64,000 nucleotides of DNA from an uncultured Candidatus Saccharibacteria bacterium (GTDB taxonomy: Bacteria > Patescibacteriota > Saccharimonadia > Saccharimonadales > Saccharimonadaceae): assembly GCA_964397215.1 (NCBI GenBank), contig CAYNHE010000001.1, positions 5,075-69,074 on the forward strand. Reading direction: 5' to 3'. The notes beneath the pieces were generated by a model. The model was not told where the DNA came from. It worked only from the letters and a program-made list of their open reading frames with translations, and searched no databases. Within the stretch, counting starts at the first letter, position 1. The number at the start of each line of letters is the position of its first letter. Of the stretch, positions 2,362 through 57,658 are shown piece by piece. Both the position numbers and the translations under genes were made by a program.

Positions 2362-3714
2362 ATGAGTTTAATATCAATTTTGCTGATTGCAACGGCGATT
2401 TTGGTGGTACTGACCGGGTTAGTATCACTGGTCGGTGCATCGAAAATCGACAAGAGCAGAATGGCGTGGTTCTTCGTGGCTACGTTAGGCTTGTCGGCGT
2501 GGTCTTTGTCGATTGCTGGATTTTTGGGTATGCCAGCGACGGCACATGAGACTACTGCTACTATTTTTATTTATGGTATATATTTGAGTGCGCTCGTTGC
2601 AGTGCCAGCGCTGTTAGGATATAGTGCTTGGAAATATACATTTGGTAAAATCTTGACCATTTTGTATATTTTGGGTGGTTTTATATTAGCGGCTTGTTTG
2701 ATACATGACCAAGGTATATTGTACGATGCCTTAACTATGAGCGAAGCAAGTGGAAACTCTATCCATATTGTTAATGGTTGGTTCTACTATACGTATGTGA
2801 TTTATTTCTGTACCTGCTTTACAATTTATCTTGGCATATTGTTTTATCGGGCCAAACACACCAAGAACAAGCGAGTGCGTTCTGGTGATATGATTTTACT
2901 AATTGGGATGGTGATTTCTTCTGGATTTACCGGACTCTTTGACCTTATCTTGCCATTCTTTGGTAAATATGACTCTATTTGGGTTGGGCCTCTAGTTCTC
3001 TCGATTGTGATGGTGATATTCTTTTACTCAATTGTGAAATACCGCATTATTACGGTTGAAGCTCGTTGGATGCGTTTGATGGCGTACGTAGTAGTGATGT
3101 CCGTTGGTGTAATCATCTACATGTTGATTTTTTACCTCATCTTCACGGCGCTATTTAAGATTCCAAATCCGTCAGCTTCTGTGCTCGTCTTGAACTTCAT
3201 CATGATTGTAATTGTGTTACTACTGATGCCGGTAATTAATGAGCTTATCGCTTCAATTCGTTCAATGATTTCTTCGGGACAAGTTGATATTGCTTATGTA
3301 ATTAAAAAGCTTAATAAACTAGCAACTCGCAACGTGGATTTGCGCGACCTTGCTGCTTTCTTGGCTGACCATTTGCACTTCTCCTATATCGGTTTTATTA
3401 TTAACGGTAAACTCTATGGCTCTAAGCCTTTAGCGATGTCGAGTGATGAGATCGCTTCGGTTTCTCGTATGAAAAGTGCTTCACATGATGGGGTCTGGCA
3501 GGAACCAAACAAGACAGTTTCTAAGACTCTTGACGAATTAGGCCTGAAAGCGGTTGCAGAATTACGGAATGCAAAAGGTAAAACATTTGGTCAGTTGATT
3601 GTCGGCAAGCCTTTGGGCAAGAATAGTTTTGAGCGCCGTGATTTGATTCAGCTTGAGATGATTATCAATTTGGTGGCGACCGTGATTGACTCGGAGAAAC
3701 ATATTAGGGCTTAA
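2362..3714 (+). CDS. Multi-pass membrane protein with N-terminal 7TM (HisKA_7TM-like) domain, no kinase domain
   Basis: AGGAGG then ATG at 2362; about 9 hydrophobic segments, then a short soluble GAF-like tail. Confidence 0.55.
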   Translation: MSLISILLIATAILVVLTGLVSLVGASKIDKSRMAWFFVATLGLSAWSLSIAGFLGMPATAHETTATIFIYGIYLSALVAVPALLGYSAWKYTFGKILTILYILGGFILAACLIHDQGILYDALTMSEASGNSIHIVNGWFYYTYVIYFCTCFTIYLGILFYRAKHTKNKRVRSGDMILLIGMVISSGFTGLFDLILPFFGKYDSIWVGPLVLSIVMVIFFYSIVKYRIITVEARWMRLMAYVVVMSVGVIIYMLIFYLIFTALFKIPNPSASVLVLNFIMIVIVLLLMPVINELIASIRSMISSGQVDIAYVIKKLNKLATRNVDLRDLAAFLADHLHFSYIGFIINGKLYGSKPLAMSSDEIASVSRMKSASHDGVWQEPNKTVSKTLDELGLKAVAELRNAKGKTFGQLIVGKPLGKNSFERRDLIQLEMIINLVATVIDSEKHIRA

Positions 3715-3735
3715 TTGATAGGTTAGGTGTAGAAT

Positions 3736-4752
3736 ATGACGGCTGCGAGATTAATGCATCAAACTAAAATGACGATTCTCTTGTCGCTTAATGCGGTGGC
3801 AATCTTGATTGTTGGTGTGATGATTTTTTCGGCAATCAATTTGAACGGCGGAATTGAATTCCAGGTAGTTGCTGAGCGTAGTGATGTGATTGATGATGCG
3901 CTAGAATCGGTGGACCTCTTGGCGCCAGAGATTGATTCTCTCGATGCGCCAGTGACTGTGGTTTCTGGTGGGCATACTGCGACGATTCCTTCTGGGGGTG
4001 GCAGTAGCAACGGTGGGTATGTTTCGACCGGCAGTTCTACTAGGAGTTCGGGAGGTATTGGCAATGGTGCTGTGGCGTCGGGTGAATTATGGAATGAAGA
4101 CGCAATTACGATTTTCCAGACAGCAGATTTTGATATTTGTGTTGGCGGAGGACTAAGCGGTTTGGGTGATATGTACTGGCAGAGTAGTAACCCAAATGTG
4201 ATTGCTGGGTTCTATAATAGCGCTCGGACTTGGTTAGGCTATAATTCGGCGACTTGTCGCTATCCAAGTATCGTCGGTACTGGTACGACGACGATTACCG
4301 CTGGTACTTATGATGGTAAACGCCATGACAAATTAACTGTGACGGTAATTGCTCCGCCAGTAGAACAATGGAAACGAGATGTTCTAGCGCTAGTTAACGA
4401 AGAACGCCGTAAGAATGGTCTTTCGGCTCTAGCGTGGGGTACGACTTGTGAACAAGCAGCAAATGTCCGTGCGCGAGAGATTATGTCGGTCTATTCTCAT
4501 ACGCGACCAGATGGAAGTGCGTTTAGTACGGCCTGTCCAATTCCAACCGCAACCGGTGGTAAATCTGGTGAAAACTTGGCCGCTGGCAATGCAGCAGTTT
4601 CTCCGGAGACGGTAGTGGCAACTTGGATGGCGTCAGAGGCGCACCGGCAGAATATTCTTGATCCAGACTTTAAGTATGTGTCGGTCGGATTTGTCTTTGA
4701 TCCGGGGTCGACGTATAAGACGTATTGGTCCCAATACTTCACTACATACTAA
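3736..4752 (+). CDS. Membrane-anchored/secreted CAP (SCP) domain protein
   Basis: N-terminal TM; LVNEERRKNGL, HTRPDG, GENLA, WMASEAHRQNIL are CAP signatures. Confidence 0.85.
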   Translation: MTAARLMHQTKMTILLSLNAVAILIVGVMIFSAINLNGGIEFQVVAERSDVIDDALESVDLLAPEIDSLDAPVTVVSGGHTATIPSGGGSSNGGYVSTGSSTRSSGGIGNGAVASGELWNEDAITIFQTADFDICVGGGLSGLGDMYWQSSNPNVIAGFYNSARTWLGYNSATCRYPSIVGTGTTTITAGTYDGKRHDKLTVTVIAPPVEQWKRDVLALVNEERRKNGLSALAWGTTCEQAANVRAREIMSVYSHTRPDGSAFSTACPIPTATGGKSGENLAAGNAAVSPETVVATWMASEAHRQNILDPDFKYVSVGFVFDPGSTYKTYWSQYFTTY

Positions 4753-4878
4753 GGGCTCGTTCTTTTCGCGCACTACTTTGTCAGAGGCTGTACTGCTCCG
4801 TCGACGTACCATTAAGTACGTCTCCGTCCGCGGTGCGCCTCTTCCTCGTATTGCATCGAAAATAACTTCGCCCAAAAT

Positions 4879-5595
4879 CTATGTACGGAAAATGTTGCGC
4901 GAACATTGTAACAAATCAGCCACTACGTGCAGCTTAATATGGCCGTTATTGCTTAAATTGTCGTGTAGTTTGAGCAGATTTGGTAGTTTGGTGAGGAATT
5001 TTTCGTTGTTGGTTTTGAAATACGATTTGTAGAGGATTTCGATGGCGGTGCTAACGACAGCAAGAGCCTGTTCGCGTGGTTTCGGTTTGGCGGTAGTGAG
5101 CTGATTGGCGATACTTGGCAGGTCTAGCACATCGGTGGTGATGAGTATTTTGGCAAGCTCCATAATTTCTGGGTCGGCCTGAGGCGCTTGATTGATGGAA
5201 TTCTGGATTCTTTGGTAAAAAATCTGCGCACGAGAACGGATAGTCGGCAACAATTTCAAAGGCTCATCTGTAAATAACACAAAATGATAATTTTTGCCTG
5301 GTTCTTCAAAAGTTTTGAGAAAAGCGTTCTGGGCGGCTTCGTTCATCGCATCGGCCGGAGCTATCACTAAGAATTGTTCGCTGGTCGAGATATTATTAGT
5401 TTGTGCGATAAAATTACGCAGGTTTTCGACAGAAATAAGCGTGGTGGTTTTGTCTTCGTCAGGACCAAGCAGAAGTGAACGCGGAAATAGTCGGTTAATC
5501 CGGTCTGGCGCGAAATGACTTCTTGGTACGACAAAAATCGCACAACTGACGCGGTGAGCAATTTCTGGTATATTATCTAGTTCATCAAAAAACAT
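4879..5595 (-). CDS. holB: DNA polymerase III delta-prime-like subunit
   Basis: ADAMNEAAQNAFLKTFEEP motif; probable ATG at 5595. Confidence 0.7.
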   Translation of the reverse strand: MFFDELDNIPEIAHRVSCAIFVVPRSHFAPDRINRLFPRSLLLGPDEDKTTTLISVENLRNFIAQTNNISTSEQFLVIAPADAMNEAAQNAFLKTFEEPGKNYHFVLFTDEPLKLLPTIRSRAQIFYQRIQNSINQAPQADPEIMELAKILITTDVLDLPSIANQLTTAKPKPREQALAVVSTAIEILYKSYFKTNNEKFLTKLPNLLKLHDNLSNNGHIKLHVVADLLQCSRNIFRT

Positions 5596-35841: not shown

Positions 35842-38232
35842 TTAGGTGTCACTAGACGCCACGTTCCCCTCGGCAACTTTATCCTTGGAGAAAATGAACA
35901 TTCCAGCAACTTCCTTGGCGCCGATGTCTTTCATCGCATGGTAAATATTTACCAAAGCACTGCGATTGATTTCGAACTCGGTGGCCGCGTAGTTGTCAGT
36001 TATCATAACGATCGAGCTCTGGTAATAAACCAGCTCATCGGTTGGCTGAGAGGAGTCAATCAGAGATTTAATCTCGTCAAGCTTCATCCTTTTGCAGACC
36101 GTGTAGGAGTCGGTATTCTCGGTTACCTGATCGTTGACAAAAACCGTCTCGTCAAAGGTGGTTGAGAATCCATCGCCTTCGCCAGCCACAATTTGCTCGA
36201 CCACTTCCAGTGAAATAGAGTGTGTCATGATTAAGCCGCTTTCCGGCATACAAATATATCGGAGCAAGTGAGATGATTCGTTGTTCTTTTTCATCTCGTT
36301 AAGCATAGTCTGCGCCTGATCGGGCGTGACCTTAGCCAGACAGGTATAAACCCCGTCTGACTGCTTGTCAAATGCCCCATACTGGTTAGCCGGCAGGTCA
36401 AAGGCGGAACCCGGTTCAGCTGCCACAGCAGTTACTACGATACCATCGTCGGTATCGTTATCGTCGGAGGAATCCTCCTTGGTTGCTGCTTCGGTATCGG
36501 CATCTTCCTGCTCAGCAGACTTGTCAGTCGCCGCGGACTCTAATCCTGTGCCAGCCTGGTTGTTGTCCTGACCATCGTTCTGGTCAGCTGCCGGCGCTTC
36601 CTCTGCTTTGTCCGTCTCTTCGTCGATTGTCTCTTCCGGAATCGGTTCGACCATCGGCGTGGGTTCCGTCCATTCCTCATCTTTAGCAAACATCGGGCCA
36701 ACTACTTTCCAGAAAAAGAAGACAGCTCCCACGAACATCGCCAAGATAACGACTATGGCAATAGCTATTCCAATAACCTTGCCAGCACTTTTCTTAGGTC
36801 GCGCAAATCTCGGGTCGCCGGAATCGTCGTCTTCCACGATTTCGCCCTCTACTACAGGTGTCGGCTCTTCAAATCCATCACCTTCACCGTTAGCCTGCTG
36901 CCAAGCGTTATAAGCACCTGATGAGTTAGCGCCAACATTCTGGTCGCGATTATTATGGTCACGAATTTTCTTGACATTATTATAAATCCGCTGCAGCTCT
37001 TCAACGTTAAGCGTAATGAGGTTGCCGTAAATCACGTCCTGACGCATTTCATACTTCGCGTCAGCGAAACTGAACTCAGGATTGTCTTCGCAGATTTTTC
37101 TGAATACAGCCGGTATTTTGTCTGGAGACTCGCAGACTAAGCATTTCACCGACACATTGCCATCTTCATCGCCGATATAATCAGCGACGGTATATTGGGT
37201 GTCGAGCAAATACTCGCAGTAGGCCTTGACGTGGCTCGCCGAGGCCTTTCCGAGCACATCGAGGTTGTCCCATTTAGTAGGGGTCATATCCTCAATCCTC
37301 TCGATAATGAACTCGGCCATCGAGTTAGACATGTTCTGAACTTCATAGAATCTGCTCTGAACCATGAAGCTCATATCCGCCGCCACGGTTGCGCGAAAAT
37401 CTTCGTAACTGATCTCCTCTTTTGTCTGTGCTGACTGTTCCTGCGTCCCGTTTTCCTCATCCTCGTTACCGAAGAAGTCGTTAAGGAAATCGTCGACGTC
37501 AAGGTTAAGGTCAACTTCGCCCGATTTATCGGGCTTATTGTCCTGATTCTGAGAGCCCTGATCCGAACCGGAATCCTGCCGGCCGTTCTGATTCTGCTCA
37601 TTCTGGCCTGAATTTTGGCTCCCCTCGTTCTGATTCTGGTCGTCCTGCGCCTGATTCTGACTTGCGTTGTCGGTGTTCGTTGCCGGTGTTACCGGGTTAG
37701 CACTCGACTGGGGCTTAGGTAACCTTGCCAGTACCATCTCGGTTTCCTCGATGGTCGGCTGGACAAAAGCCTGCGCAATCTTCAGAGATTCGAGCATAGA
37801 AATACCATATTCGTCTCTCAGAGAACTTGCCAAGTCAAACCCAGTGGCTTCGTCCGACTTCAGGCAGACTGTTCTTGCGAGGTCCAAGAGACCTTCGCGA
37901 AACTCTTCCGGTGTAGGCGAGTTGATTTCTAACTCCTCGCATATGAGCGTCAGCTCCGCACTACTAATTAAATTCTTTCTTCCTTTCATTTCATTTCCCT
38001 CCATATCGTCTTCTGTATCTTCTGGTTTTGCCGTCATGACGGGGTCTGCCGCCAAGATGTCATCCTCCCCGATGACAGTTGCGCTTGTATTGGGCTGAAT
38101 CGGTTTTTGCTCCGGCTGGTTCGCAGGAGACATCGATTCGGCCGTCTGTTGACCGCTGTTTGACGTGCCCGGACGCCAATTCATAGTGCCGAAATTGGGG
38201 TACATTTGTCCCCAGCCATTCTTATACATCAT
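35842..38232 (-). CDS. Large acidic hypothetical protein, one central TM, Q/N/D-rich segments
   Basis: 796-aa ORF with AGGAGGGAGG RBS; no recognisable domain. Confidence 0.7.
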   Translation of the reverse strand: MMYKNGWGQMYPNFGTMNWRPGTSNSGQQTAESMSPANQPEQKPIQPNTSATVIGEDDILAADPVMTAKPEDTEDDMEGNEMKGRKNLISSAELTLICEELEINSPTPEEFREGLLDLARTVCLKSDEATGFDLASSLRDEYGISMLESLKIAQAFVQPTIEETEMVLARLPKPQSSANPVTPATNTDNASQNQAQDDQNQNEGSQNSGQNEQNQNGRQDSGSDQGSQNQDNKPDKSGEVDLNLDVDDFLNDFFGNEDEENGTQEQSAQTKEEISYEDFRATVAADMSFMVQSRFYEVQNMSNSMAEFIIERIEDMTPTKWDNLDVLGKASASHVKAYCEYLLDTQYTVADYIGDEDGNVSVKCLVCESPDKIPAVFRKICEDNPEFSFADAKYEMRQDVIYGNLITLNVEELQRIYNNVKKIRDHNNRDQNVGANSSGAYNAWQQANGEGDGFEEPTPVVEGEIVEDDDSGDPRFARPKKSAGKVIGIAIAIVVILAMFVGAVFFFWKVVGPMFAKDEEWTEPTPMVEPIPEETIDEETDKAEEAPAADQNDGQDNNQAGTGLESAATDKSAEQEDADTEAATKEDSSDDNDTDDGIVVTAVAAEPGSAFDLPANQYGAFDKQSDGVYTCLAKVTPDQAQTMLNEMKKNNESSHLLRYICMPESGLIMTHSISLEVVEQIVAGEGDGFSTTFDETVFVNDQVTENTDSYTVCKRMKLDEIKSLIDSSQPTDELVYYQSSIVMITDNYAATEFEINRSALVNIYHAMKDIGAKEVAGMFIFSKDKVAEGNVASSDT

Positions 38233-38576: not shown

Positions 38577-40028
38577 ATGACTACTTTAAATGATTATCGA
38601 GACGAGCGTTTGCGCAAATTAGCGGAGATTCGGGGGCTGAGGATTAATCCTTACCCGGCAAAATCGCATCGAAATGTCAAAATTAACGAGATTTTGGAGC
38701 ATTTTGATGAGCGACAGGGGCAAAAAGTGACGGTGGCTGGGCGAATTACGGCGATTCGGAGCTTCGGTAAGATTGCGTTCGTGAAGATTCGGGATTTTTT
38801 TGGTGAAATTCAGATTTTTTTGCAAAAAGAAGACGAGCAGGAGGGTTTATTTAACATTAAACGCCTGAAATTGCTCGATACAGGTGATTTTGTCGAAGCG
38901 ACTGGCACGGTCGAGAAGAGCTCGACTGGGGAGATTTCGGTTTTTGCTAATCAATTACGACTGCTAACTAAGGCGTTGAGACCACTGCCGGGCTTCGATG
39001 GGCTAAAAAATAAGGAGGAGCGTTATCGCCGACGCTACGTCGATATGAACGTGAATCCAGAGGTGCGCGAGCGTTTGGTGCGTCGTTCCAAATTCTGGCA
39101 GGCGACTAGGGATTTTATGAATAGCCGTGGTTTTGTCGAGGTGAACGTTCCGGTGCTGGAACATACGACTGGTGGGGCGGATGCCACGCCGTTTGTTACA
39201 CACATGGATGCGCTGGATGAGGATTTTTATCTAAGAATTAGTCATGAATTGCCGCTGAAACGCCTGTTGGGTGGTGGTTTTGATAAAGTTTATGATATTG
39301 GACCACGTTTTCGCAATGAGGGGATTGATGATGAACATCTGCCGGAACATATCGCGTTTGAGAGTTATGCCGCGTTCGAGGATTATGAGGACGGCATGGA
39401 TCTCTATGAAGAAATGATTAAATACGTCGCGAAGGAGACTTGGGGGACGCTGCAGTTTAACGTGGGCGGTTTCGAGGTGAATCTTGACCAAAAATGGCCG
39501 CGCGTAAAATACGCCGACCTGCTGATGGAAAAGTTCGGCATTGACGTGTTTAAGCCTGATCGAGCTAAGATGATTGAGATTTTGAAGAAGGAGGGGGTCG
39601 AAATTGATGACAAAGTCGCCGATGCGAGGTTGATTGATAACCTCTGGAAGTTGATTCGCAAGACTTCGGCTGGACCGTATTGGCTGGTCGAAGAGCCGCT
39701 GAGCTTGAGTCCGCTAGCCAAGGTGAGTGACGAAAATCCGCTCGTGACGCAGCGTTTTCACCCGATTATTGCTGGTACCGAAATGGGTAATGGTTATTCT
39801 GAGTTGAACGATCCGCTAGACCAGTTGGCGCGATTTCAAGAACAACAAGCGATGCGTGACAACGGGGATTCTGAAGCGCAAATGCTCGATATGGATTTCG
39901 TTGAAATGCTTGAATATGGTATGCCGCCGGCTTGTGGTTGGGGTAATAGCGAACGGAATTTCTGGCTACTCGAAGGCGTGAGCGGCCGTGAGGCGGTGCC
40001 ATTCCCGTTGATTAAGAGCAAGGAATAA
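38577..40028 (+). CDS. lysS: Lysyl-tRNA synthetase (class II)
   Basis: NPYP, RYRRRYVD, GGADATPF, FRNEG, NGYSELNDP. Confidence 0.96.
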   Translation: MTTLNDYRDERLRKLAEIRGLRINPYPAKSHRNVKINEILEHFDERQGQKVTVAGRITAIRSFGKIAFVKIRDFFGEIQIFLQKEDEQEGLFNIKRLKLLDTGDFVEATGTVEKSSTGEISVFANQLRLLTKALRPLPGFDGLKNKEERYRRRYVDMNVNPEVRERLVRRSKFWQATRDFMNSRGFVEVNVPVLEHTTGGADATPFVTHMDALDEDFYLRISHELPLKRLLGGGFDKVYDIGPRFRNEGIDDEHLPEHIAFESYAAFEDYEDGMDLYEEMIKYVAKETWGTLQFNVGGFEVNLDQKWPRVKYADLLMEKFGIDVFKPDRAKMIEILKKEGVEIDDKVADARLIDNLWKLIRKTSAGPYWLVEEPLSLSPLAKVSDENPLVTQRFHPIIAGTEMGNGYSELNDPLDQLARFQEQQAMRDNGDSEAQMLDMDFVEMLEYGMPPACGWGNSERNFWLLEGVSGREAVPFPLIKSKE

Positions 40029-40029
40029 A

Positions 40030-40491
40030 ATGGAGAAGAGAAGCGCGGTCCGCGTAGCGCTGTTCGACCAGAATGGCGCGGTCGCGATTATTAAGGTTGC
40101 AAAACTCCACTATTATAAAATTCCCGGTGGTGGCGTCGAGGTTGGCGAGTCAAATTATGACGCCGCAATACGCGAAACCCTGGAAGAGACTGGCTGCAAT
40201 TGCAAAATTATTGCGGAACTGGGCAGAATCGAGACGGACATTGCTGGTTGGAATATACATGATGTTTCGGATGGTTTTGCAGCGCTGATGGTGGGTGAGC
40301 GTGGTACACCAAGTTATGATGAATGGGAAAAGGAGCGCGGATTTAGCATAGAGTGGTTCAACGACCTCTCGGAAGCCATTGCGATGATTAGTAGCAACGA
40401 AGTTGAAGATCCTGACGCACGATTATTGCAGGAGCGAGATTTGGAATTTCTGAAGCGTGCAGTAAAAGTAGTCGAGTCCACGCATCAATAA
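40030..40491 (+). CDS. NUDIX hydrolase
   Basis: PGGGVEVGESNYDAAIRETLEETG Nudix box. Confidence 0.9.
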   Translation: MEKRSAVRVALFDQNGAVAIIKVAKLHYYKIPGGGVEVGESNYDAAIRETLEETGCNCKIIAELGRIETDIAGWNIHDVSDGFAALMVGERGTPSYDEWEKERGFSIEWFNDLSEAIAMISSNEVEDPDARLLQERDLEFLKRAVKVVESTHQ

Positions 40492-40531
40492 GCAAGACTA
40501 ATGTTGGTGTGGTCGCTGCGCACGGTTCTTC

Positions 40532-40723
40532 ATACTCCTGCAAACAGCGGAGAGAGAAACCGTGATAACGAGAATTCGGGCCGTTTGACGGATAAACGCC
40601 GGACCCATGAAAATCAAAGCGAAATGTACCTTCTGACGTAGCACCACTGCTTGACCAAGCAATGCCGGAAAAACCTGCTCCCCAAAAGAAACCGATTTTC
40701 AAATTAGTGTTACCGCTGCGCAT
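40532..40723 (-). repeat. Variable cassette C1: FISUMP/CLec C-terminal region, 63 codons
   Basis: MRSGNTNLKIGFFWGAGFSGIAWSSSGATSEGTFRFDFHGSGVYPSNGPNSRYHGFSLRCLQE followed by TAT instead of TAG. Confidence 0.85.
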
Positions 40724-40873
40724 GTAATTGAAACTAAATATGTTCTAAAAGCGCAAAAAACTATTAAAAATTGCCAAAAAATGCAAATTTTCTTATTTTT
40801 TTACGAACCTCGAAAAATTTAATTTTCCGAGGTTTACGACGCATCGCTTGTAGGTTACCATTTGCAGTGTGTT

Positions 40874-40968
40874 AGGTGATAAAAAATCGATTTTTATCAC
40901 CTGCTAGTTCGTAAGTAACAGAGGTGGAGTAGAAAATCTAGGTGATAAATTTTTAATTTTTCTCACCT
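40874..40968. repeat. Two 29-bp palindromes AGGTGATAAA-N9-TTT(A/C)TCACCT, 66 bp apart
   Basis: Copies at 40874-40902 and 40940-40968 in the spacer between divergent cassettes C1 and C2. Confidence 0.8.
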
Positions 40969-41033
40969 AAAGAAATTATGAAAAATCCGTATTTTTGACA
41001 AGATTTGGATCAAATTCCATGAAAAAGCATCTC

Positions 41034-41243: not shown

Positions 41244-42665
41244 TTACTTTCGTTTAGTTAGCACAATCAGATTCTCGATATGTGGCGTGCGTGGGAAGAA
41301 ATTGAAGGGTTGGATGAATTCTATTTGGTATTTTTCTTGGAGCATAGTAACGTCGCGTGCCTGTGTGATAGGATTGCACGAGAGGTAAATGATGCGCTCT
41401 GGCATGACTGCTAATAATTTTTCGATTAAGTCCTGATGGCACCCAGCGCGTGGCGGATCAAGAATCACGGTCTGGTCAGGCGCGATAAAATCAAGCGCCT
41501 CTTCAGATTTGGCAAGAACTGGGCGAGGGGTGGAGGCAACGCCATATGTTGCTTCTGGGGAGCTCTCGGAGCTTACGACCGGCGATTCAAGATTCCGAGA
41601 GAAACAAATGCTTGCATTTGCTTCCGAGGAATTGCAGAAGCGCGAGACGGCGAAGCCGGCGATGAGCGTAGGGCGCTTCGCGCCTGTAAAGACAGGTTGC
41701 GAAGACGCCCGGTCCTCAAAAGTAATACGCGATGCCATTTTTATCCCTTGTACATTCCTTTCCAACTCTTGATAGGCGGATTTATCACACTCGACCAGTG
41801 TTAATTCGTGGTCGCGAGCAATGGAAAGTCCGATGGTGCCGACGCCGGCATACAAATCAAGAACTTTACCAGGGAGCACCCATTTTTGCATTTCGCGTAG
41901 CGCAAGTTCGTAGACTGGCAAGTTAATTTGAAAGAAGCCATTAGGTGAATAACTGTAAGCTTGACCGAGAATCGTGTCGGTCAGATTGGCAAAAGTTGGG
42001 TGTTTCTGACCATTAACGAAGAGGCCGCCGCTAGTTTCACCAGCTTGGTTCGCTCGGAGGAGTAAACTTTGGTATTTGCGAGCGTCTTCGTGACGGTCGT
42101 TCAGGTCTTTAACAATTTCTTTAGCGCGAGCTAGGATTTCTGGACGTTCGATGCTTGACTCGCTGATCGGAATTTTACGATGGGAGCCACGCGCGTGGAA
42201 AGCCAGATGGATTCGCTGGTCATCATGGTCAAAATATAGCGCATATTCCATTTTATTACGATAATGATAATCTTGACCGTCCGTTACGACTGATTGCACT
42301 GTGAGACTGCCTAGTGCGAGATGCTGCTGGCGCAAAATTTCGACTACTAGCGCACGTTTGGTGGTGAGTTCGCAGTCGTAGGTCATGATTTGCCAAGGAG
42401 AAGTGGCGAGAAAAGCTTCGTCGCGCGGTTTAATGCGTTCCGGAGCAGGATTTTCGATTTCTAGAGCAATGCCTTCGAGATAAGTGCTTTTATCCTTGGT
42501 GATTTCGAATTTGGTGACGGTTTCACCGGGCAACGCATTCCAGAGCATGGCTTTCTTGCCGTTTGCGAGTGTGCCGAGCGCCTGTCCGCCGGGGATGATT
42601 TTAGCGATTTCGACAGAGTCGGTGGAGATTTTGGGCGCGCGAGGCTGATGAGATTTATTCCGCAT
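41244..42665 (-). CDS. RlmD/TrmA-family RNA (uracil-C5) methyltransferase carrying an in-frame ~60-aa insertion
   Basis: YRNKME, FFQIN, LDLYAGVGTIG, ILDPPRAG, YLSCNP, FPRTPHIE. Confidence 0.9.
   Translation of the reverse strand: MRNKSHQPRAPKISTDSVEIAKIIPGGQALGTLANGKKAMLWNALPGETVTKFEITKDKSTYLEGIALEIENPAPERIKPRDEAFLATSPWQIMTYDCELTTKRALVVEILRQQHLALGSLTVQSVVTDGQDYHYRNKMEYALYFDHDDQRIHLAFHARGSHRKIPISESSIERPEILARAKEIVKDLNDRHEDARKYQSLLLRANQAGETSGGLFVNGQKHPTFANLTDTILGQAYSYSPNGFFQINLPVYELALREMQKWVLPGKVLDLYAGVGTIGLSIARDHELTLVECDKSAYQELERNVQGIKMASRITFEDRASSQPVFTGAKRPTLIAGFAVSRFCNSSEANASICFSRNLESPVVSSESSPEATYGVASTPRPVLAKSEEALDFIAPDQTVILDPPRAGCHQDLIEKLLAVMPERIIYLSCNPITQARDVTMLQEKYQIEFIQPFNFFPRTPHIENLIVLTKRK
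41548..41728. mobile_element. Palindromic repeat element (REP/RPE/MITE-like), copy 1, inside the methyltransferase ORF
   Basis: Near-identical to 46791-46972 (reverse complement) and to 59552-59665. Confidence 0.8.
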
Positions 42666-46014: not shown

Positions 46015-46704
46015 TCACTGTTTCTTCTTTTTGGTATTTTTCTTAGGGGTACGCTGAGATGGCGTTTGAGTTGGAAAAGCCTTGTAGTGGCGTTGTTTAA
46101 GCTTGCTTTTTTCGCCAAGAATTTCCCGAATGCGCTCGGAGATTTCTTCAGTCGCGTCACGTTTGGCTGTGTCAACGGTGACTTTATACACTGTGATAAG
46201 ATAGAGCGAAAATCCAACGTCGATTAATAACGCCATGAAAAGGACGATAGCCAAAATCTCCCAAATCCTAATTGGCAGAAGATCGAGAAGCCAAAAGAGA
46301 GTTGGGTTAACGAATTTAAGAATCAGCACGCCGGCTACGCCAAAACACAGCACCGAGCCAATACAAATCCGTCCATTGAGATTAAAGGGTTGCTCGGTGT
46401 AATCCCACCAACGAACATGAAACGCGATTTCCATCCACCAGCTAGTTAAATATTCCAGCAAAGCGCCACCAATCATGGAGACGCAGACGATTTCGATGAT
46501 GCCATCCGAACGACTACAAAGAAACGAAAGTAACAGCGCGCCAGTGCCATAAACTGGGCAAATTGGCCCGATGAGAAAGCCACGATTGATTAATTTCTTG
46601 CGATTCATGAGATTTACCAACACTTCTATCACCCAACCAGCAAAAGAGTAGAAGATAAAAATCAGAAACCAAGTTGCCAGAAAGTGAGGGATGGTGGATT
46701 GCAT
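46015..46704 (-). CDS. Putative ABC transporter permease (CmpB/DUF1113-like)
   Basis: GFLIGPICPVYG, RWWDYT, NLNGRIC. Confidence 0.8.
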   Translation of the reverse strand: MQSTIPHFLATWFLIFIFYSFAGWVIEVLVNLMNRKKLINRGFLIGPICPVYGTGALLLSFLCSRSDGIIEIVCVSMIGGALLEYLTSWWMEIAFHVRWWDYTEQPFNLNGRICIGSVLCFGVAGVLILKFVNPTLFWLLDLLPIRIWEILAIVLFMALLIDVGFSLYLITVYKVTVDTAKRDATEEISERIREILGEKSKLKQRHYKAFPTQTPSQRTPKKNTKKKKQ

Positions 46705-46777: not shown

Positions 46778-46987
46778 CTAGTAATTGGCAGTATTACTTT
46801 TGAGGACCGGGCGTCTTCGCAACCTGTCTTCACAGGTGCGAAGACGCCCTGCGCTCATCGACGGCTGCGCCGTCTCGCGATTCTGCAATTCCTCGGAAGC
46901 AAATGCAAGCATTTGTTTCTCTCGGAATCTTGAACCGCCGGTCGTAAGCTCCGAGAGCTCCCCAGAAGCAACACTGCCAGTTACTAG
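46778..46987. mobile_element. Palindromic repeat element copy 2 (core 46791-46972) with 15-bp flanking inverted repeats
   Basis: CTAGTAATTGGCAGT ... ACTGCCAGTTACTAG (1 mismatch); internal hairpin GGGCGTCTTCGC-A-ACCTGT-CTTC-ACAGGT-GCGAAGACGCCC. Confidence 0.8.
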
Positions 46988-47115
46988 GACATGCTTCACA
47001 TTAATCTTGAAAAGGCACTCTAGACAACAGCATACTTAAACTAGAATAAAGTTTGAATTATATTAATAACTCAAGCGCAGTTTGCATTTTCTAAAATACT
47101 AAACAATTAAGCGAA

Positions 47116-47182
47116 GTCCATACTTTTTTGAGACTAAAGACTTGGCCTAAGCGGCGACAACGCGGTCTCAAAAAGTATGGAC
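47116..47182. repeat. Long hairpin downstream of cassette C3
   Basis: GTCCATACTTTTTTGAGAC / GTCTCAAAAAGTATGGAC arms; loop contains AAGACTTGGCCTAAGCGGC. Confidence 0.8.
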
Positions 47183-47190
47183 GAGCGCTC

Positions 47191-47382
47191 CTACTCCTGC
47201 AAACAGCGGAGAGAGAAACCGTAGAAACGAGCGCGTGGTTCAAGCGATAAAGATGTTGATCCAGCACCAAGTGCAACAAAGTAAGCGCTATCATCGTCAG
47301 TGCTATTACGAGACCAGTAATATCCGTTAATTCCTACGATTCTCAAGATGCCGCTAAACATGTCCGTATGGCCGCTGCGCAC
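47191..47382 (-). repeat. Variable cassette C3
   Basis: VRSGHTDMFSGILRIVGINGYYWSRNSTDDDSAYFVALGAGSTSLSLEPRARFYGFSLRCLQE*. Confidence 0.85.
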
Positions 47383-47390
47383 AATTCGTT

Positions 47391-47582
47391 CTACTCTTGC
47401 AAACAGCGGAGAGAGAAACCAAGGTAACGATAGGCTTGATTACTTGATACTTCAACATCTATATCACTGAATGAAAAACGGTATGCATTATAAGAATCAG
47501 CGCCAGTACGCGTCCAATAAGGCCCAGCCATGCCAACATATCCTAGAAAACCGTTACCTATGTGAGGTCGGCCGCTGCGCAC
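47391..47582 (-). repeat. Variable cassette C4 (tandem with C3, 8-bp gap)
   Basis: VRSGRPHIGNGFLGYVGMAGPYWTRTGADSYNAYRFSFSDIDVEVSSNQAYRYLGFSLRCLQE*. Confidence 0.85.
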
Positions 47583-47614
47583 GAGTGCTTTTTTGGCCCA
47601 ACCATCGCTTGCTG

Positions 47615-47714
47615 AAGTGTGCGCGGTTTTTCGATTTCTGCGCGTAGATTTTTGATGATTAACAGAGGTAGAACCGGAAAAAGTGTGTGCGGTTTTGCAA
47701 AAAGCGCGCGTAGA
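47615..47714. repeat. Two 34-bp imperfect direct repeats with palindromic cores, 66 bp apart
   Basis: AAGTGTGCGCGGTTTTTCGATTTCTGCGCGTAGA (47615-47648) and AAGTGTGTGCGGTTTTGCAAAAAGCGCGCGTAGA (47681-47714). Confidence 0.75.
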
Positions 47715-47726
47715 ATCAGCTACTTC

Positions 47727-47918: not shown

Positions 47919-47930
47919 GAGCGCTTGCCC

Positions 47931-47988
47931 CTAATTTTCTGAAATATAAGACTTGGCCAAGCGGCCCGGAGCGATTTCAGAAAATTAG
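47931..47988. repeat. Perfect 15-bp hairpin downstream of cassette C5
   Basis: CTAATTTTCTGAAAT / ATTTCAGAAAATTAG; loop contains AAGACTTGGCCAAGCGGC. Confidence 0.8.
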
Positions 47989-48021
47989 AGGTTGCGCTTA
48001 GTTTTGTGTTATAATAACCAT

Positions 48022-49206
48022 ATGAATTTTGTGATAATTGGGTTAATTTTGGCGAATTTGGTACTTTTGGTTTTGCTTGTGCTTAGAAAACCAGTAGCGC
48101 GAACCGATACACGCGCTCTTGAGGAACGTTTAATCAGGATTGAAGGTGAGTTAGACAAGTTGACTCCTAAGATTGACACGGCTTTTCGCGATAATCGCAA
48201 GGAGATTGCTGATAATTTGCAGAACATTCAGCGCACGGTGGATACGCGCGTGCGGAGTTTGCAGGACGACAATTCCAAGAAACTCGAAGAAATGCGCCAG
48301 ACGGTGGATGAGAAGTTGCAGGCTTCGGTCGAGAAACGTTTTAACGAGAGTTTTAAGAACATTTCTACGCAGCTTACGCAAGTTTATACCGGCCTCGGCG
48401 AGATGAAAGCCCTCGCGAGCGATGTCGGCGGACTAAAAAAGGTGATGGAAGGCGTGAAAACCCGTGGAATTTATGGTGAAGTGCAGCTCGGTAATTTGAT
48501 TGAAGATTGTCTGAGCAAGGGGCAATATGTCGAAAATGTCATCACCAAACAAGGGAGCACGGACCGGGTGGAATTTGCGATTCGGATGCCAGGCAAGGAC
48601 ACAGCCGAAGTTTTCTTGCCGATTGATTCAAAATTTCCCATCGAGAATTATGCACGCCTCATCGAGGCCTATGATAAGGGTGACAAGGCGCAAATTTTGC
48701 ATTTTAGAAAAGCCCTAGAGGTTGATGTCAAGACGCAGGCCAAGAAAATTTCCACCAAATATCTCGATCCGCCAGCCACCACTGATTTTGGTGTGATGTT
48801 CGTGCCGACCGAGAGTTTGTACGCAGAAATTTTGCGCGTGCCAGGGCTCTCCGAAGAAGTGCGGCAGAAGTTTAACGTGACGATTTGTTCGCCGAGTACT
48901 CTGCCAGTGATTTTGTCGGGGCTTACCATGGGCTTTCGAAGCGTGGCGATTGAGCAGCGTTCGGCAGAAGTTTGGCAGACGCTTGGTAGCGTCAAGGCGC
49001 AGTTTAGTAAGTTTGGCGATTTGCTTGGCGCCGTTAAGAAAAAATTACAAGAAACCACTAACAAAATTTCTGATGCCGAGGTGACTTCGCGGAGTATCGA
49101 GCGCAAATTGCGTGATGTCGAAGTTTTGCCAGAGACCGAATCGAAACCAACCCTCAGCAGCCAGACATCAGCCCTAAGTGATCAAATTTCTGTTGAAGTC
49201 GAGTAG
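48022..49206 (+). CDS. rmuC: DNA recombination protein RmuC
   Basis: N-terminal TM and coiled coil, KTRGIYGEVQL, LPIDSKFP, MFVPTESLY, SPSTL; ATG 48022. Confidence 0.92.
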   Translation: MNFVIIGLILANLVLLVLLVLRKPVARTDTRALEERLIRIEGELDKLTPKIDTAFRDNRKEIADNLQNIQRTVDTRVRSLQDDNSKKLEEMRQTVDEKLQASVEKRFNESFKNISTQLTQVYTGLGEMKALASDVGGLKKVMEGVKTRGIYGEVQLGNLIEDCLSKGQYVENVITKQGSTDRVEFAIRMPGKDTAEVFLPIDSKFPIENYARLIEAYDKGDKAQILHFRKALEVDVKTQAKKISTKYLDPPATTDFGVMFVPTESLYAEILRVPGLSEEVRQKFNVTICSPSTLPVILSGLTMGFRSVAIEQRSAEVWQTLGSVKAQFSKFGDLLGAVKKKLQETTNKISDAEVTSRSIERKLRDVEVLPETESKPTLSSQTSALSDQISVEVE

Positions 49207-54234: not shown

Positions 54235-54357
54235 ATGAAAGCTGGAGCCGTTAAACGGTTCTTGGCCAGTGCGGCAATTATGTGCGCAGCGGTACTGGCG
54301 TTGGTAACGTTAATTTTAATCTTAATGTCTAAGTCGCCAGCGATCTACTTAGACTAA
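54235..54357 (+). CDS. Candidate 40-aa single-TM small protein
   Basis: AAGGAGGG RBS; MKAGAVKRFLASAAIMCAAVLALVTLILILMSKSPAIYLD*. Confidence 0.45.
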   Translation: MKAGAVKRFLASAAIMCAAVLALVTLILILMSKSPAIYLD

Positions 54358-55804: not shown

Positions 55805-57658
55805 ATGCTTAGAAGAAATATTAACTTTAATCTGATAGGATATATCAGTGTAGGGATACTTGGTGTCGTGGCGATAGCGGCATGTTTACCCACCACCACT
55901 AGCCGCGCTTCCGCCGCTCCCCTCACTACCACGGCTGGGGTCGCCATTACGGCTAATAGTATGGCTACGGTAGCCATTAGCGTTGACGAACAAGTAACTA
56001 TCGATATTACACCCACCTCAAGCCGTAATGGCGACTTCATGAGTGGTGTAAGTAATGTGCATGTCTCTACTAATAATACGTCTGGCTATAGTCTATATAT
56101 GTCAGCCGTGAATGAGACTGGTAATTTGGAACCTATTACTACTAATGCTGATAGTAAAGCCATTACTAACCTTTCTGTAGATACTCTTGGCACTAACTTC
56201 ACTGGCAATACTTGGGGTTATAACTTAAGTAAAGTAACTAGCGCTAATACTATTAGTAGCAATGAGGGTAGGAGTGTAGAAGAGAGTGTAGAAGAGAGTG
56301 TAGAAGAGAATGTAGGAGGAGAAAGTGCAGGAAGAGCTAGTAGCAGCTCTGCTGCTACTAGTCTCACCTATTCTGCGGTTCCGACTAATGCTACTACGGC
56401 TATTTATACCACTGACTCAGCTAACCTAGAGAATAGTGATGACTACTACTTAACCTTTGGTGTAAACATTGATAATACTCTTCCAGCTGGTACTTATACT
56501 AACTCTGTCCTAGTCTCTGCGGTAGCTAATCCTATTACTATATCAGAACTATCTCAGCTTACCTACATGCAAGACATGACTAGTAGTATTTGTACTAATA
56601 CTATGGAACATGCCACCAAACAACTAGTTGATACTCGTGATGGTAAGAAATACTGGGTAGCGAAACTTAAGGATGGGAATTGTTGGATGACACAGAACCT
56701 AGCCTTGGATTTATCGAAAGAAAAGACTTTGACGAGTAGCGATACGGACCTAGAGTTTGTGCCAAAAAATGATGACGGAAGTGATTATGAGTTTACGCCA
56801 GAAAGTGACACCAATGAATATGCCTCGTTTAGTGAGGCCCAAAGCGTAAAAGACGCCTCATGGAATTTTGGAAATCTTATCATGGGCACCCCGACTTTTA
56901 GAAAACAATGTATGCCGTATGCGATGTCTATAAGTCAGATTATTGAAAACTGCGCGTCGGTGGGAGTTTATGATGTATCTGGTGATTGGAAAGCGACTTA
57001 CCAGTCCAAACCCGGCACATTGACTCTGTTAAACGGTCAAACTTATCCAACAGATTTCGCTTCAAATATTAGCCCTAATGATGCATATATTATATCTGTT
57101 GACCCAAATAATAAAACCTACGACGCACACTATCTTTTTGGTAGCACCTATTTCTTCCAGGCTGCTGCAGCCGGTACTAATACAAAAGTGACTGAGGCCA
57201 TGAGTGCAGTATCTGGTAGTATCTGTCCGAAGGGCTGGCAATTACCAAATTCGGGACGATATACTGCAGAGATTGCCGGTAGTGACACGAGTTTAATAGA
57301 AAAACCTTTAGACAGAGAAAAAAGTTTTTATCGATTACTACTTGCTTATGGTTATCCAGAGAATACACAGTATGAAGTTATTAGTAACGGCGGACAAACC
57401 AACATGTTATACGGAGCAAATCAGAATATTAACGCTGATCCATTTTATTTCTTCGCCCCTGGCTCTATTAATTTTGTTCGTGGCGTAGTGGGTATCGGCT
57501 CGCATATCTATTTTACATCGGCAACCGCTCTAAACACTATGAACAGGTTAGCGTTCTATAGTGGAATTAAAAATTTTGCGCAAGGAGAATTCGTCATTAA
57601 ACCTGCTAACGGAGATGGTGGTTTATATAGCATGCCAGTCCGTTGCCTTGCTCGCTAA
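55805..57658 (+). CDS. FISUMP (Fibrobacter succinogenes major paralogous) domain surface protein
   Basis: Signal/TM N-terminus; YMQDMT, LVDTRDGKKYWVAKLKDGNCWMTQNLAL, SICPKGWQLP, terminal PVRCLAR. Confidence 0.85.
   Translation: MLRRNINFNLIGYISVGILGVVAIAACLPTTTSRASAAPLTTTAGVAITANSMATVAISVDEQVTIDITPTSSRNGDFMSGVSNVHVSTNNTSGYSLYMSAVNETGNLEPITTNADSKAITNLSVDTLGTNFTGNTWGYNLSKVTSANTISSNEGRSVEESVEESVEENVGGESAGRASSSSAATSLTYSAVPTNATTAIYTTDSANLENSDDYYLTFGVNIDNTLPAGTYTNSVLVSAVANPITISELSQLTYMQDMTSSICTNTMEHATKQLVDTRDGKKYWVAKLKDGNCWMTQNLALDLSKEKTLTSSDTDLEFVPKNDDGSDYEFTPESDTNEYASFSEAQSVKDASWNFGNLIMGTPTFRKQCMPYAMSISQIIENCASVGVYDVSGDWKATYQSKPGTLTLLNGQTYPTDFASNISPNDAYIISVDPNNKTYDAHYLFGSTYFFQAAAAGTNTKVTEAMSAVSGSICPKGWQLPNSGRYTAEIAGSDTSLIEKPLDREKSFYRLLLAYGYPENTQYEVISNGGQTNMLYGANQNINADPFYFFAPGSINFVRGVVGIGSHIYFTSATALNTMNRLAFYSGIKNFAQGEFVIKPANGDGGLYSMPVRCLAR
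56273..56320 (+). repeat. 12-bp tandem repeat AGTGTAGAAGAG x3 plus one degenerate unit (SVEE)
   Basis: Read directly; in-frame within the FISUMP gene. Confidence 0.9.

Follow-up and report, generated by a model that had tools for sequence, protein, structure and literature searches.

What is the 10-mer GTGCGCAGCG doing at 40514-40523 in a 64,000-nt stretch of DNA (hereafter the window) from a rodent-gut Candidatus Saccharibacteria? It stands next to a NUDIX gene, 8 nt after the end of a 192-nt repeat unit, and could be the empty attachment site of an array that moves by site-specific recombination, as the initial annotation proposed, or the remnant of something else. The evidence assembled below makes it very probable that the five repeat units of the window, C1-C5, are orphan, 'beheaded' variable repeats of a diversity-generating retroelement (DGR) and that 40514-40523 belongs to a sixth, truncated copy of the C2 family.

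Two clusters of cassettes with conserved ends

The five 192-nt cassettes, a density of 5 copies per 64 kb, align without gaps over their full 192 nt. All of them start with (G/A)TGCGCAGCGG and end with CGTTAC.ACGGTTTCTCTCTCCGCTGTTTGCAGGAGTA(G/T), and their interiors are alike at only about 50-60%. One cluster lies between lysS/NUDIX (38577-40491) and a tRNA-U5-methyltransferase-like gene (41244-42665), and the other between a CmpB-like gene (46015-46704) and rmuC (47992-49206). Both loci follow the same plan of minus-strand cassettes, a spacer and then an outward-reading plus-strand cassette. At the first locus, C1 (40532-40723, minus strand; ATGCGCAGCGG...CAGGAGTAT) has a unique interior at single-copy depth that is deeply diverged from that of C2 (saturated dS), and a spacer (40724-41033) separates it from the divergent C2 (41034-41225, plus strand). 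At the second, C4 (47391-47582, minus strand) ends with ...CAAGAGTAG at 47391 and is followed by C3 (47191-47382, minus strand), which starts with GTGCGCAGCGG at 47382; the spacer 47583-47726 separates C4 from the divergent C5 (47727-47918, plus strand).

The exact 10-mer GTGCGCAGCG occurs six times in the window, five of these being at cassette starts or at 40514-40523; the remaining match, at 54282, was rejected as a cassette start and attributed to chance. When up to one mismatch was allowed, 10 matches were found against 4.1 expected, a number reached in only 1 of 100 shuffles, and the 3' motif occurs five times against 0.02 expected. C1-C5 hardly differ in their last 30 nt, whereas the interior dS is saturated, indicating that the ends are preserved at the nucleotide level. 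Tandem Repeats Finder detected no array in the window because the cassette copies are too diverged.

Significant long hairpins follow just two cassettes, the terminal ones C3 and C5, and are multi-copy in metagenomes. The first lies directly 3' of the C3 stop (47110-47190, minus strand; fold -24.2 kcal/mol, z -4.81; metagenome depth 141-340 vs about 11) and the second directly 3' of the C5 stop (47919-47998, plus strand; -25.2 kcal/mol, z -4.95). The C1/C2 spacer contains two 30-nt A/T-rich palindromes (40873-40902 and 40939-40968; repeats D1, I3 and I18), paired 66 nt apart (TAGGTGATAAAAAATCGATTTTTATCACCT) and also noted for 47583-47726. Parts of both inter-cassette spacers are present at 3-9 times single-copy depth in metagenomes (4-9 times for the C4/C5 spacer), so cassettes and spacer may be repeated together as one module. 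Between the clusters, C2 (plus strand) faces C3 and C4 (minus strand) across 6 kb occupied by five housekeeping genes on the minus strand, the flanking genes being on the plus strand. An inversion between cassettes is conceivable, the contig joints that link opposite strands being indistinguishable from paralogues; joints at which an assembled contig goes back correspond to tandem paralogues.

The cassettes are surrounded by lysS, NUDIX, RNA methyltransferase, cysS, hydrolase, DHH protein, CmpB-like, RmuC, metK, fusA and other genes. Pfam searches of 18 neighbouring ORFs revealed no integrase, resolvase, recombinase or reverse transcriptase (RT), and no RT, Avd or template repeat was found within the 64-kb window (YxDD scan for RT; Pfam on the neighbours). 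Exact sequence look-up of the NUDIX protein, P0001 and P0019 returned no record. The single tRNA of the window is unrelated to the cassette locus. Two inverted copies of a 183-nt element, sharing 96% identity, occupy 41547-41728 and 46791-46973, the left one lying in frame within the tRNA-U5-methyltransferase-like ORF, between the SAM-binding and C-terminal catalytic parts; the element reaches several times single-copy depth in metagenomes, and contigs break there. The ORF at 35842-38232 (minus strand) encodes a very acidic, low-complexity protein of 796 aa with one predicted membrane segment and no Pfam match.

Cassettes probably encode the end of a lectin-type domain

The frames of all five cassettes are open and read VRSG...YWS...AY...GFSLRCLQE followed by a stop, with GTG as the first codon in four cassettes and ATG in C1. 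Each cassette appears to cover the C-terminal 63 residues of a FISUMP/C-type-lectin domain and finishes at the stop codon. A single cassette matched Pfam Fib_succ_major weakly, below the curated threshold (E 0.15, profile positions 143-186). A profile built from C1-C5 matched 2377 proteins, including AAC/Asn-rich members, 62-64-aa MRSG...RCLQE ORFs and multi-unit arrays, and these relatives place the unit at positions 129-187 of Fib_succ_major (P0088, P0030) and 68-117 of Lcl_C. The full-length relative P0028 matched Fib_succ_major above threshold (56.9 bits over 5-186/187), and a full-length relative ending in the same RCLQE tail was found as P0067 on contig L017. Near all five cassettes of the window, the N-terminal half of the domain is absent, the upstream stop-to-stop frames reaching just 33-55 codons.

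Pairwise comparison of the interiors gave saturated dS and dN of 0.3-0.9, below dS, and codons without template adenines differ between cassettes mostly synonymously, indicating that the interiors are old paralogous coding sequences, their presumed source being different templates. The tail of L017 (TGC CTC CAG GAG) shows synonymous differences only, which suggests protein-level constraint on the RCLQE end as well. A small, weak hairpin predicted near the cassette 3' end, CTCCGC/GC(A)GGAG, was considered as a target signal, but it is not conserved and is disrupted by the synonymous changes in the L017 tail. Promoter and terminator scans around the cassettes stayed at chance level, and the C1/C2 spacer contains no promoter-like sites beyond chance. 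The locus was found in no RNA run.

Searching the window by tblastn with P0028 and P0067 located one full-length paralogue (55805-57658, plus strand; 617 aa, secreted or anchored) with a C-terminal FISUMP-like domain (...PFYFFAPGSINFVRG...YSMPVRCLAR, then stop), for which Pfam Fib_succ_major gave no match at E <= 1. This gene is a distant paralogue of the cassettes, lacks both cassette end motifs and has a terminator hairpin downstream.

The motif at 40514-40523 belongs to a truncated cassette

C1 closes with ...CAGGAGTAT at 40532 and is followed by the 8-nt linker GAAGAACC (40531-40524, minus strand) and then by GTGCGCAGCG at 40523-40514, exactly as first described. The sequence beyond, which had been called unrelated, is cassette sequence: on the minus strand it matches the start of C2 at 20/23 and 24/32 positions, and only the next 28 positions (9/28) are random. 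Consistently, nhmmer with the cassette profile aligned 40525-40494 to profile positions 11-42 (E 0.007). Since cassette homology continues 23-32 nt past the motif, 40514-40523 is part of a truncated sixth cassette and not a bare site. This 5' stump (GTGCGCAGCGACCACACCAACAT..., 40494-40523, minus strand; family D2) abuts the NUDIX stop codon (40489-40491) and has changed where live copies are invariant (GCGG to GCGA, for example). The supposed leftover attachment site is thus indeed a leftover, but of another cassette. A candidate second stump 3' of C2 was dropped (p 0.54).

The 8-nt spacing reported between C4 and C3 was likewise borne out: C4 ends at 47391, the linker AACGAATT occupies 47390-47383 (minus strand) and C3 starts at 47382, giving a 200-bp unit, and this junction is kept in a related strain (X6). 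In other arrays, in which the units measure 62-64 codons, the linkers are 6 nt (RCLQE-YEL/YKL-VRSG), 7 nt (TAG AGCGATT GTG, X6) or 9 nt (YSIF; TAC AGCATTTTC GTG, on an X1 contig), indicating that the 8-nt gap and the 200-bp period are local and not general. The imperfect palindrome ascribed to the junction is present as CCGCTG..CAGCGG, but it is weak: as single-stranded DNA the junctions folded at -6.9 and -7.1 kcal/mol (z -0.66 and -0.75), and 50 and 37 of 200 shuffles, respectively, folded as well.

Adenine-specific variation and stand-alone template units

DGRs are recognised by adenine-specific variation against an AAC-rich copy that itself stays invariant (PMC6182149, PMC5758913). Among the relatives of the cassettes, the Asn-rich P0014 is encoded on metagenome contig L001 by a sequence that reads GTGCGCAGCGG C AAC GTC AAC ATG GGC AAC ... 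GGTTTCTCTCTCCGCT and then continues with CGTGAGTG..., where cassettes have GTTTGCAGGAG. Comparison of C2 with this L001 template, which comes from a related contig of another metagenome and not from the genome of the window, revealed 23 mismatches in 178 nt, of which 18 fall at the 42 A sites and 5 at the 136 other sites (odds ratio 19.7, p 2.7e-9). In four rodent-gut runs (Logan contigs), dozens of C2-like copies could be aligned to C2, and 21 of the 26 variable columns listed for them are template adenines (p 5.5e-11). These columns occupy the first two positions of template AAC/AAT codons, and all four bases are seen there, A often being the commonest. We therefore regard C2 as a DGR variable repeat (VR) cognate to an L001-type template repeat. 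C1, C3, C4 and C5 show weak A enrichment (odds ratio 2.2-2.8) and 29-52 non-A mismatches to the same template, and classical single-template DGR activity does not account for these four; their origin must lie in other templates or other processes.

Template/target homology accordingly has GTGCGCAGCGG as its 5' edge and CTCTCCGCT as its 3' edge. Template and VR sequences part directly after CTCTCCGCT, and the tail GTTTGCAGGAGTA(G/T), which encodes ...CLQE and the stop, is found in VRs only. DGR targets are known to have a 3' element confined to VRs (IMH), with a hairpin or cruciform downstream of it (PMC3240598).

Template units were found on contigs L001 (1-345), L002 (9770-10250), L003 (1-1800) and L012 (920-1440), where they stand alone as promoter, leader, template repeat and trailer: a TATAAT-type promoter, a leader of about 250 nt with conserved pieces, the AAC-rich unit and the trailer GGTGCCGATCTT, whose CGATCTT is complementary to AAGATCG of the leader. 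They are placed between housekeeping genes, for example mnmA and alaS, and no RT is adjacent to the units of these four contigs. The leader also contains a GTGGA..TCCATGG hairpin and, besides AAGATCG, one copy of TCTCCGCTCGC; L003 has four template units arranged as two converging pairs. Rfam detected no family in the window, nor in the leaders of the template units; a metagenome scan with the template probe gave chance matches only, and scans of viral contigs found nothing.

In another lineage, four proteins of 700-980 aa (P0015, P0016, P0029 and P0068) consist of stop-free tandem arrays of 7-12 FISUMP-tail cassettes with the units FFPASGYR...GF(S/P)VRC VQASA... and periods of about 75 or 142 aa, some units being Asn-rich like the templates. 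Headless cassette arrays are therefore not limited to Saccharibacteria-type sequences.

Copy number and strain variation

The summed contig depth of the 3' motif was 2700-5200 vs 11-14 for the flanks, about 250-370 times single copy, to which other Saccharibacteria in the samples contribute, so that it is not a per-genome count. A search of genome contigs with both end motifs, in a collection that does not include the genome of the window, returned a single cassette, in the mouse-gut Saccharibacteria MAG L004.

The window was compared, on assembled contigs of gut runs (among them X5 and X10 from rat and X6 from mouse), with strains whose flanking genes differ from it by 0.7-2.7%. The C3 interior is present in X1 and X6 and absent from X5 at >=80% identity. 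The C5 interior is replaced in other strains: its depth is 0 in X5 and X6, where the 5' part of C5 is C2-family-like. The window-type C1 interior is absent from X5 and X6, and in X1 a 95% variant of C1 and its spacer, which may be a paralogue, occurs alongside the window type. C4 has just 2 differences in X5 and X6 and is thus not visibly active. Cassette interiors are therefore either conserved at background level or swapped whole.

The boundary at the stump varies as well. The NUDIX contigs of X5, X10 and X6 (1 mismatch in 145 nt) run through the stump, depart from the window exactly after 40524 (breakpoint 40524/40525) and go on with AAAAAAGTAAAATGTGTGCTCCAAAGGCAA..., 62-67 nt that are absent from the whole window. 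This departure at the 5' edge of the motif shows that the boundary differs between strains on the cassette side of the stump. The prediction that DNA is gained or lost at the motif is accordingly supported for the boundary, which varies between strains even though gap lengths in other arrays are unequal, but not for a site-specific mechanism. A further flush edge was found on L017, where the 5' edge of another cassette lies head to head against a 5'-truncated FISUMP gene. Such flush 5' edges fit either recombination starting where homology starts or the joining of full-length cDNA ends.

Origin of the cassettes and competing explanations

In the explanation that we favour, a cassette is the last 63 codons of a gene, the variable ligand-binding half of a FISUMP/C-type-lectin domain, present without the rest of the gene. 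Adenine-mutagenised cDNA from a template would overwrite the stretch between the GTGCGCAGCGG and CTCTCCGCT edges, so that the ends would stay nucleotide-identical while the interiors diverge. The anatomy, the adenine bias, the copy number, the stump homology and the strain breakpoint are direct observations; we infer that an RT encoded in the genome of the window drives the process, and likewise the way in which the junctions form. The stump, having lost everything beyond about 30 nt and with it the 3' target end, would no longer be rewritable and would be decaying, with changes at non-A positions included. Tandem copies, stumps and strain junctions flush with the 5' motif would be products of DNA joining, or of recombination, at the conserved ends, and the 8-nt gap would be a local accident inside the 6-9-nt range.

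As for how the junctions form, one tentative proposal, to which we give a minor chance, is that the flush 5' edges are cDNA ends, a full-length template cDNA being primed at the 3' tail of a cassette and its other end being joined to a break elsewhere. That break would often lie a few bases beyond the tail of another cassette, instead of in the homologous 5' region. Such joining would cover the orphan cassettes, the head-to-tail arrays with their 6-9-nt linkers, the head-to-head pairs and the 40524/40525 breakpoint.

The same cassettes might instead serve as a silent store. In Borrelia (vlsE/vls) and Neisseria (pilE/pilS), silent cassette arrays provide antigenic variation, and here headless donors would be copied through their conserved ends (GTGCGCAGCGG...CTGTTTGCAGGAGTAG) into one or a few expressed full-length genes; the stump would be a recombination scar, and a DGR might diversify the store beforehand. 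Promoter-less partial gene ends, arrayed and tightly packed in both orientations, combine nucleotide-identical flanks with diverged interiors, whole interiors have been swapped between near-identical strains (C3 in X5; C5 in X5 and X6), and full-length relatives share the RCLQE tail (P0067/L017). However, the window contains no expression site with cassette ends, the paralogue at 55805-57658 having neither motif; no mosaic or segmental conversion tracts were demonstrated, and the interior swaps are equally explained by DGR overwriting from different templates. Unlike vls and pilS, moreover, the cassettes bear an adenine (reverse-transcription) signature and not only ancient paralogy, and the units are the extreme C-terminal 63 codons plus the stop. 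We consider a silent store unlikely.

Expression of the cassettes as mini-genes is less probable again. They would yield 63-aa peptides from the GTG or ATG codon, with AGGAG of the preceding tail as a Shine-Dalgarno sequence 9-12 nt upstream in tandem arrays, and in-frame linkers would yield poly-cassette proteins. The start codons, the five open frames and the dN below dS in the interiors agree with this, as do the many 62-64-aa MRSG...RCLQE proteins and in-frame proteins of 2-3 units delivered by gene callers. However, AAC-based templates cannot yield stop codons, so the open frames require no selection; head cassettes have no Shine-Dalgarno sequence or promoter, and both junctions in the window are out of frame. 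A lone cassette is also only half a domain and is predicted to be unfolded (AlphaFold pLDDT 44, pTM 0.27).

The integron-like reading, in which GTGCGCAGCG would be the attachment site of 200-bp units moved by a recombinase and 40514-40523 an empty one, is close to refuted. It shares with integron cassettes and attC sites the discrete tandem units with a recurrent boundary motif, and it would account for the conserved ends, the equal 8-nt gaps at two junctions and the strain breakpoint exactly at the motif. Yet there is no intI by the array and no integrase, resolvase, recombinase or RT among the 18 neighbouring ORFs scanned; the cassettes are mutually homologous gene ends, not unrelated ORFs; and the junction, unlike a structured attC, shows no folding advantage over shuffles. 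Other arrays have gaps of 6, 7 and 9 nt, and the 'empty site' carries cassette sequence for a further 23-32 nt. The boundary motif is itself coding sequence (VRSG) that marks the edge of template homology, and the adenine-specific pattern requires reverse transcription.

Inert debris, that is, pseudogene fragments of a paralogous FISUMP family with no maintaining process, is the least credible possibility, for although C4 is unchanged between strains, the stump is decaying and the N-terminal halves are absent, the 30-nt 3' end is near-invariant despite saturated interior dS, its motif is present at hundreds-fold depth, C2-like variation is adenine-specific and interiors are replaced between close strains.

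Discussion

The orphan-VR explanation places the locus within a known kind of system. The usual description of DGRs, whose prototype is the mtd/avd/TR/brt system of Bordetella phage BPP-1, has a single RT and a single template that serve one to a few intact target genes. Shufflons and invertible segments, such as the R64 pilV shufflon and the Gin/Cin-controlled tail fibres of Mu and P1, likewise have alternative C-terminal coding segments that lie in both orientations and carry a repeat at the 5' end. Unlike those, the cassettes have no nearby recombinase gene and no constant N-terminal gene part leading into the cluster, and they form two clusters 6.5 kb apart around housekeeping genes.

Patescibacteria (CPR) have DGRs of their own, described as DGR clade 2 (Roux et al. 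2021, PMC8144416) and as the 'CPR set' (Wu et al. 2018, PMC5758913). The cassettes share with them an AAC-rich template set against copies that differ at template adenines, a variable stretch that maps to the C-terminal part of a C-type-lectin-clan domain (Fib_succ_major/Lcl_C), and a VR-specific sequence that begins where template homology stops, the position of IMH versus IMH*. DGRs are known to act on sites remote from their template (PMC5758913). Surveys report a single target for most CPR DGRs and maxima of 8 target genes in tandem or 7 at remote positions (PMC5758913), as well as 2-3 VRs within a gene (PMC11661182). Unlike the surveyed DGRs, the cassettes lack the rest of the gene, are clustered head to tail and head to head between housekeeping genes and carry a 3' motif that is present hundreds-fold, and the related template units stand alone with no RT adjacent. 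The kind of system is thus known, and its headless, high-copy, arrayed form is absent from the surveys (PMC5758913, PMC8144416, PMC11661182).

The narrow result is that a supposed attachment site is the stump of a dead cassette and that the 200-bp period is local only. More broadly, the locus represents a layout in which the rewritable tip of a gene has been multiplied to high copy without the gene, and in which the array boundaries fall on the edges of template homology and vary among closely related strains. Such a layout would explain why assemblies of such genomes break at cassette sites. Were the flush edges indeed cDNA ends, the retroelement would behead its own targets, build arrays and rearrange the chromosome in the stretches between housekeeping genes, so that a genome of ~1 Mb would hold dozens of headless tips open to rewriting. 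Should the copies be a store of variants or faulty products of retrohoming, the view of the role that DGRs play in small symbiont genomes would change.
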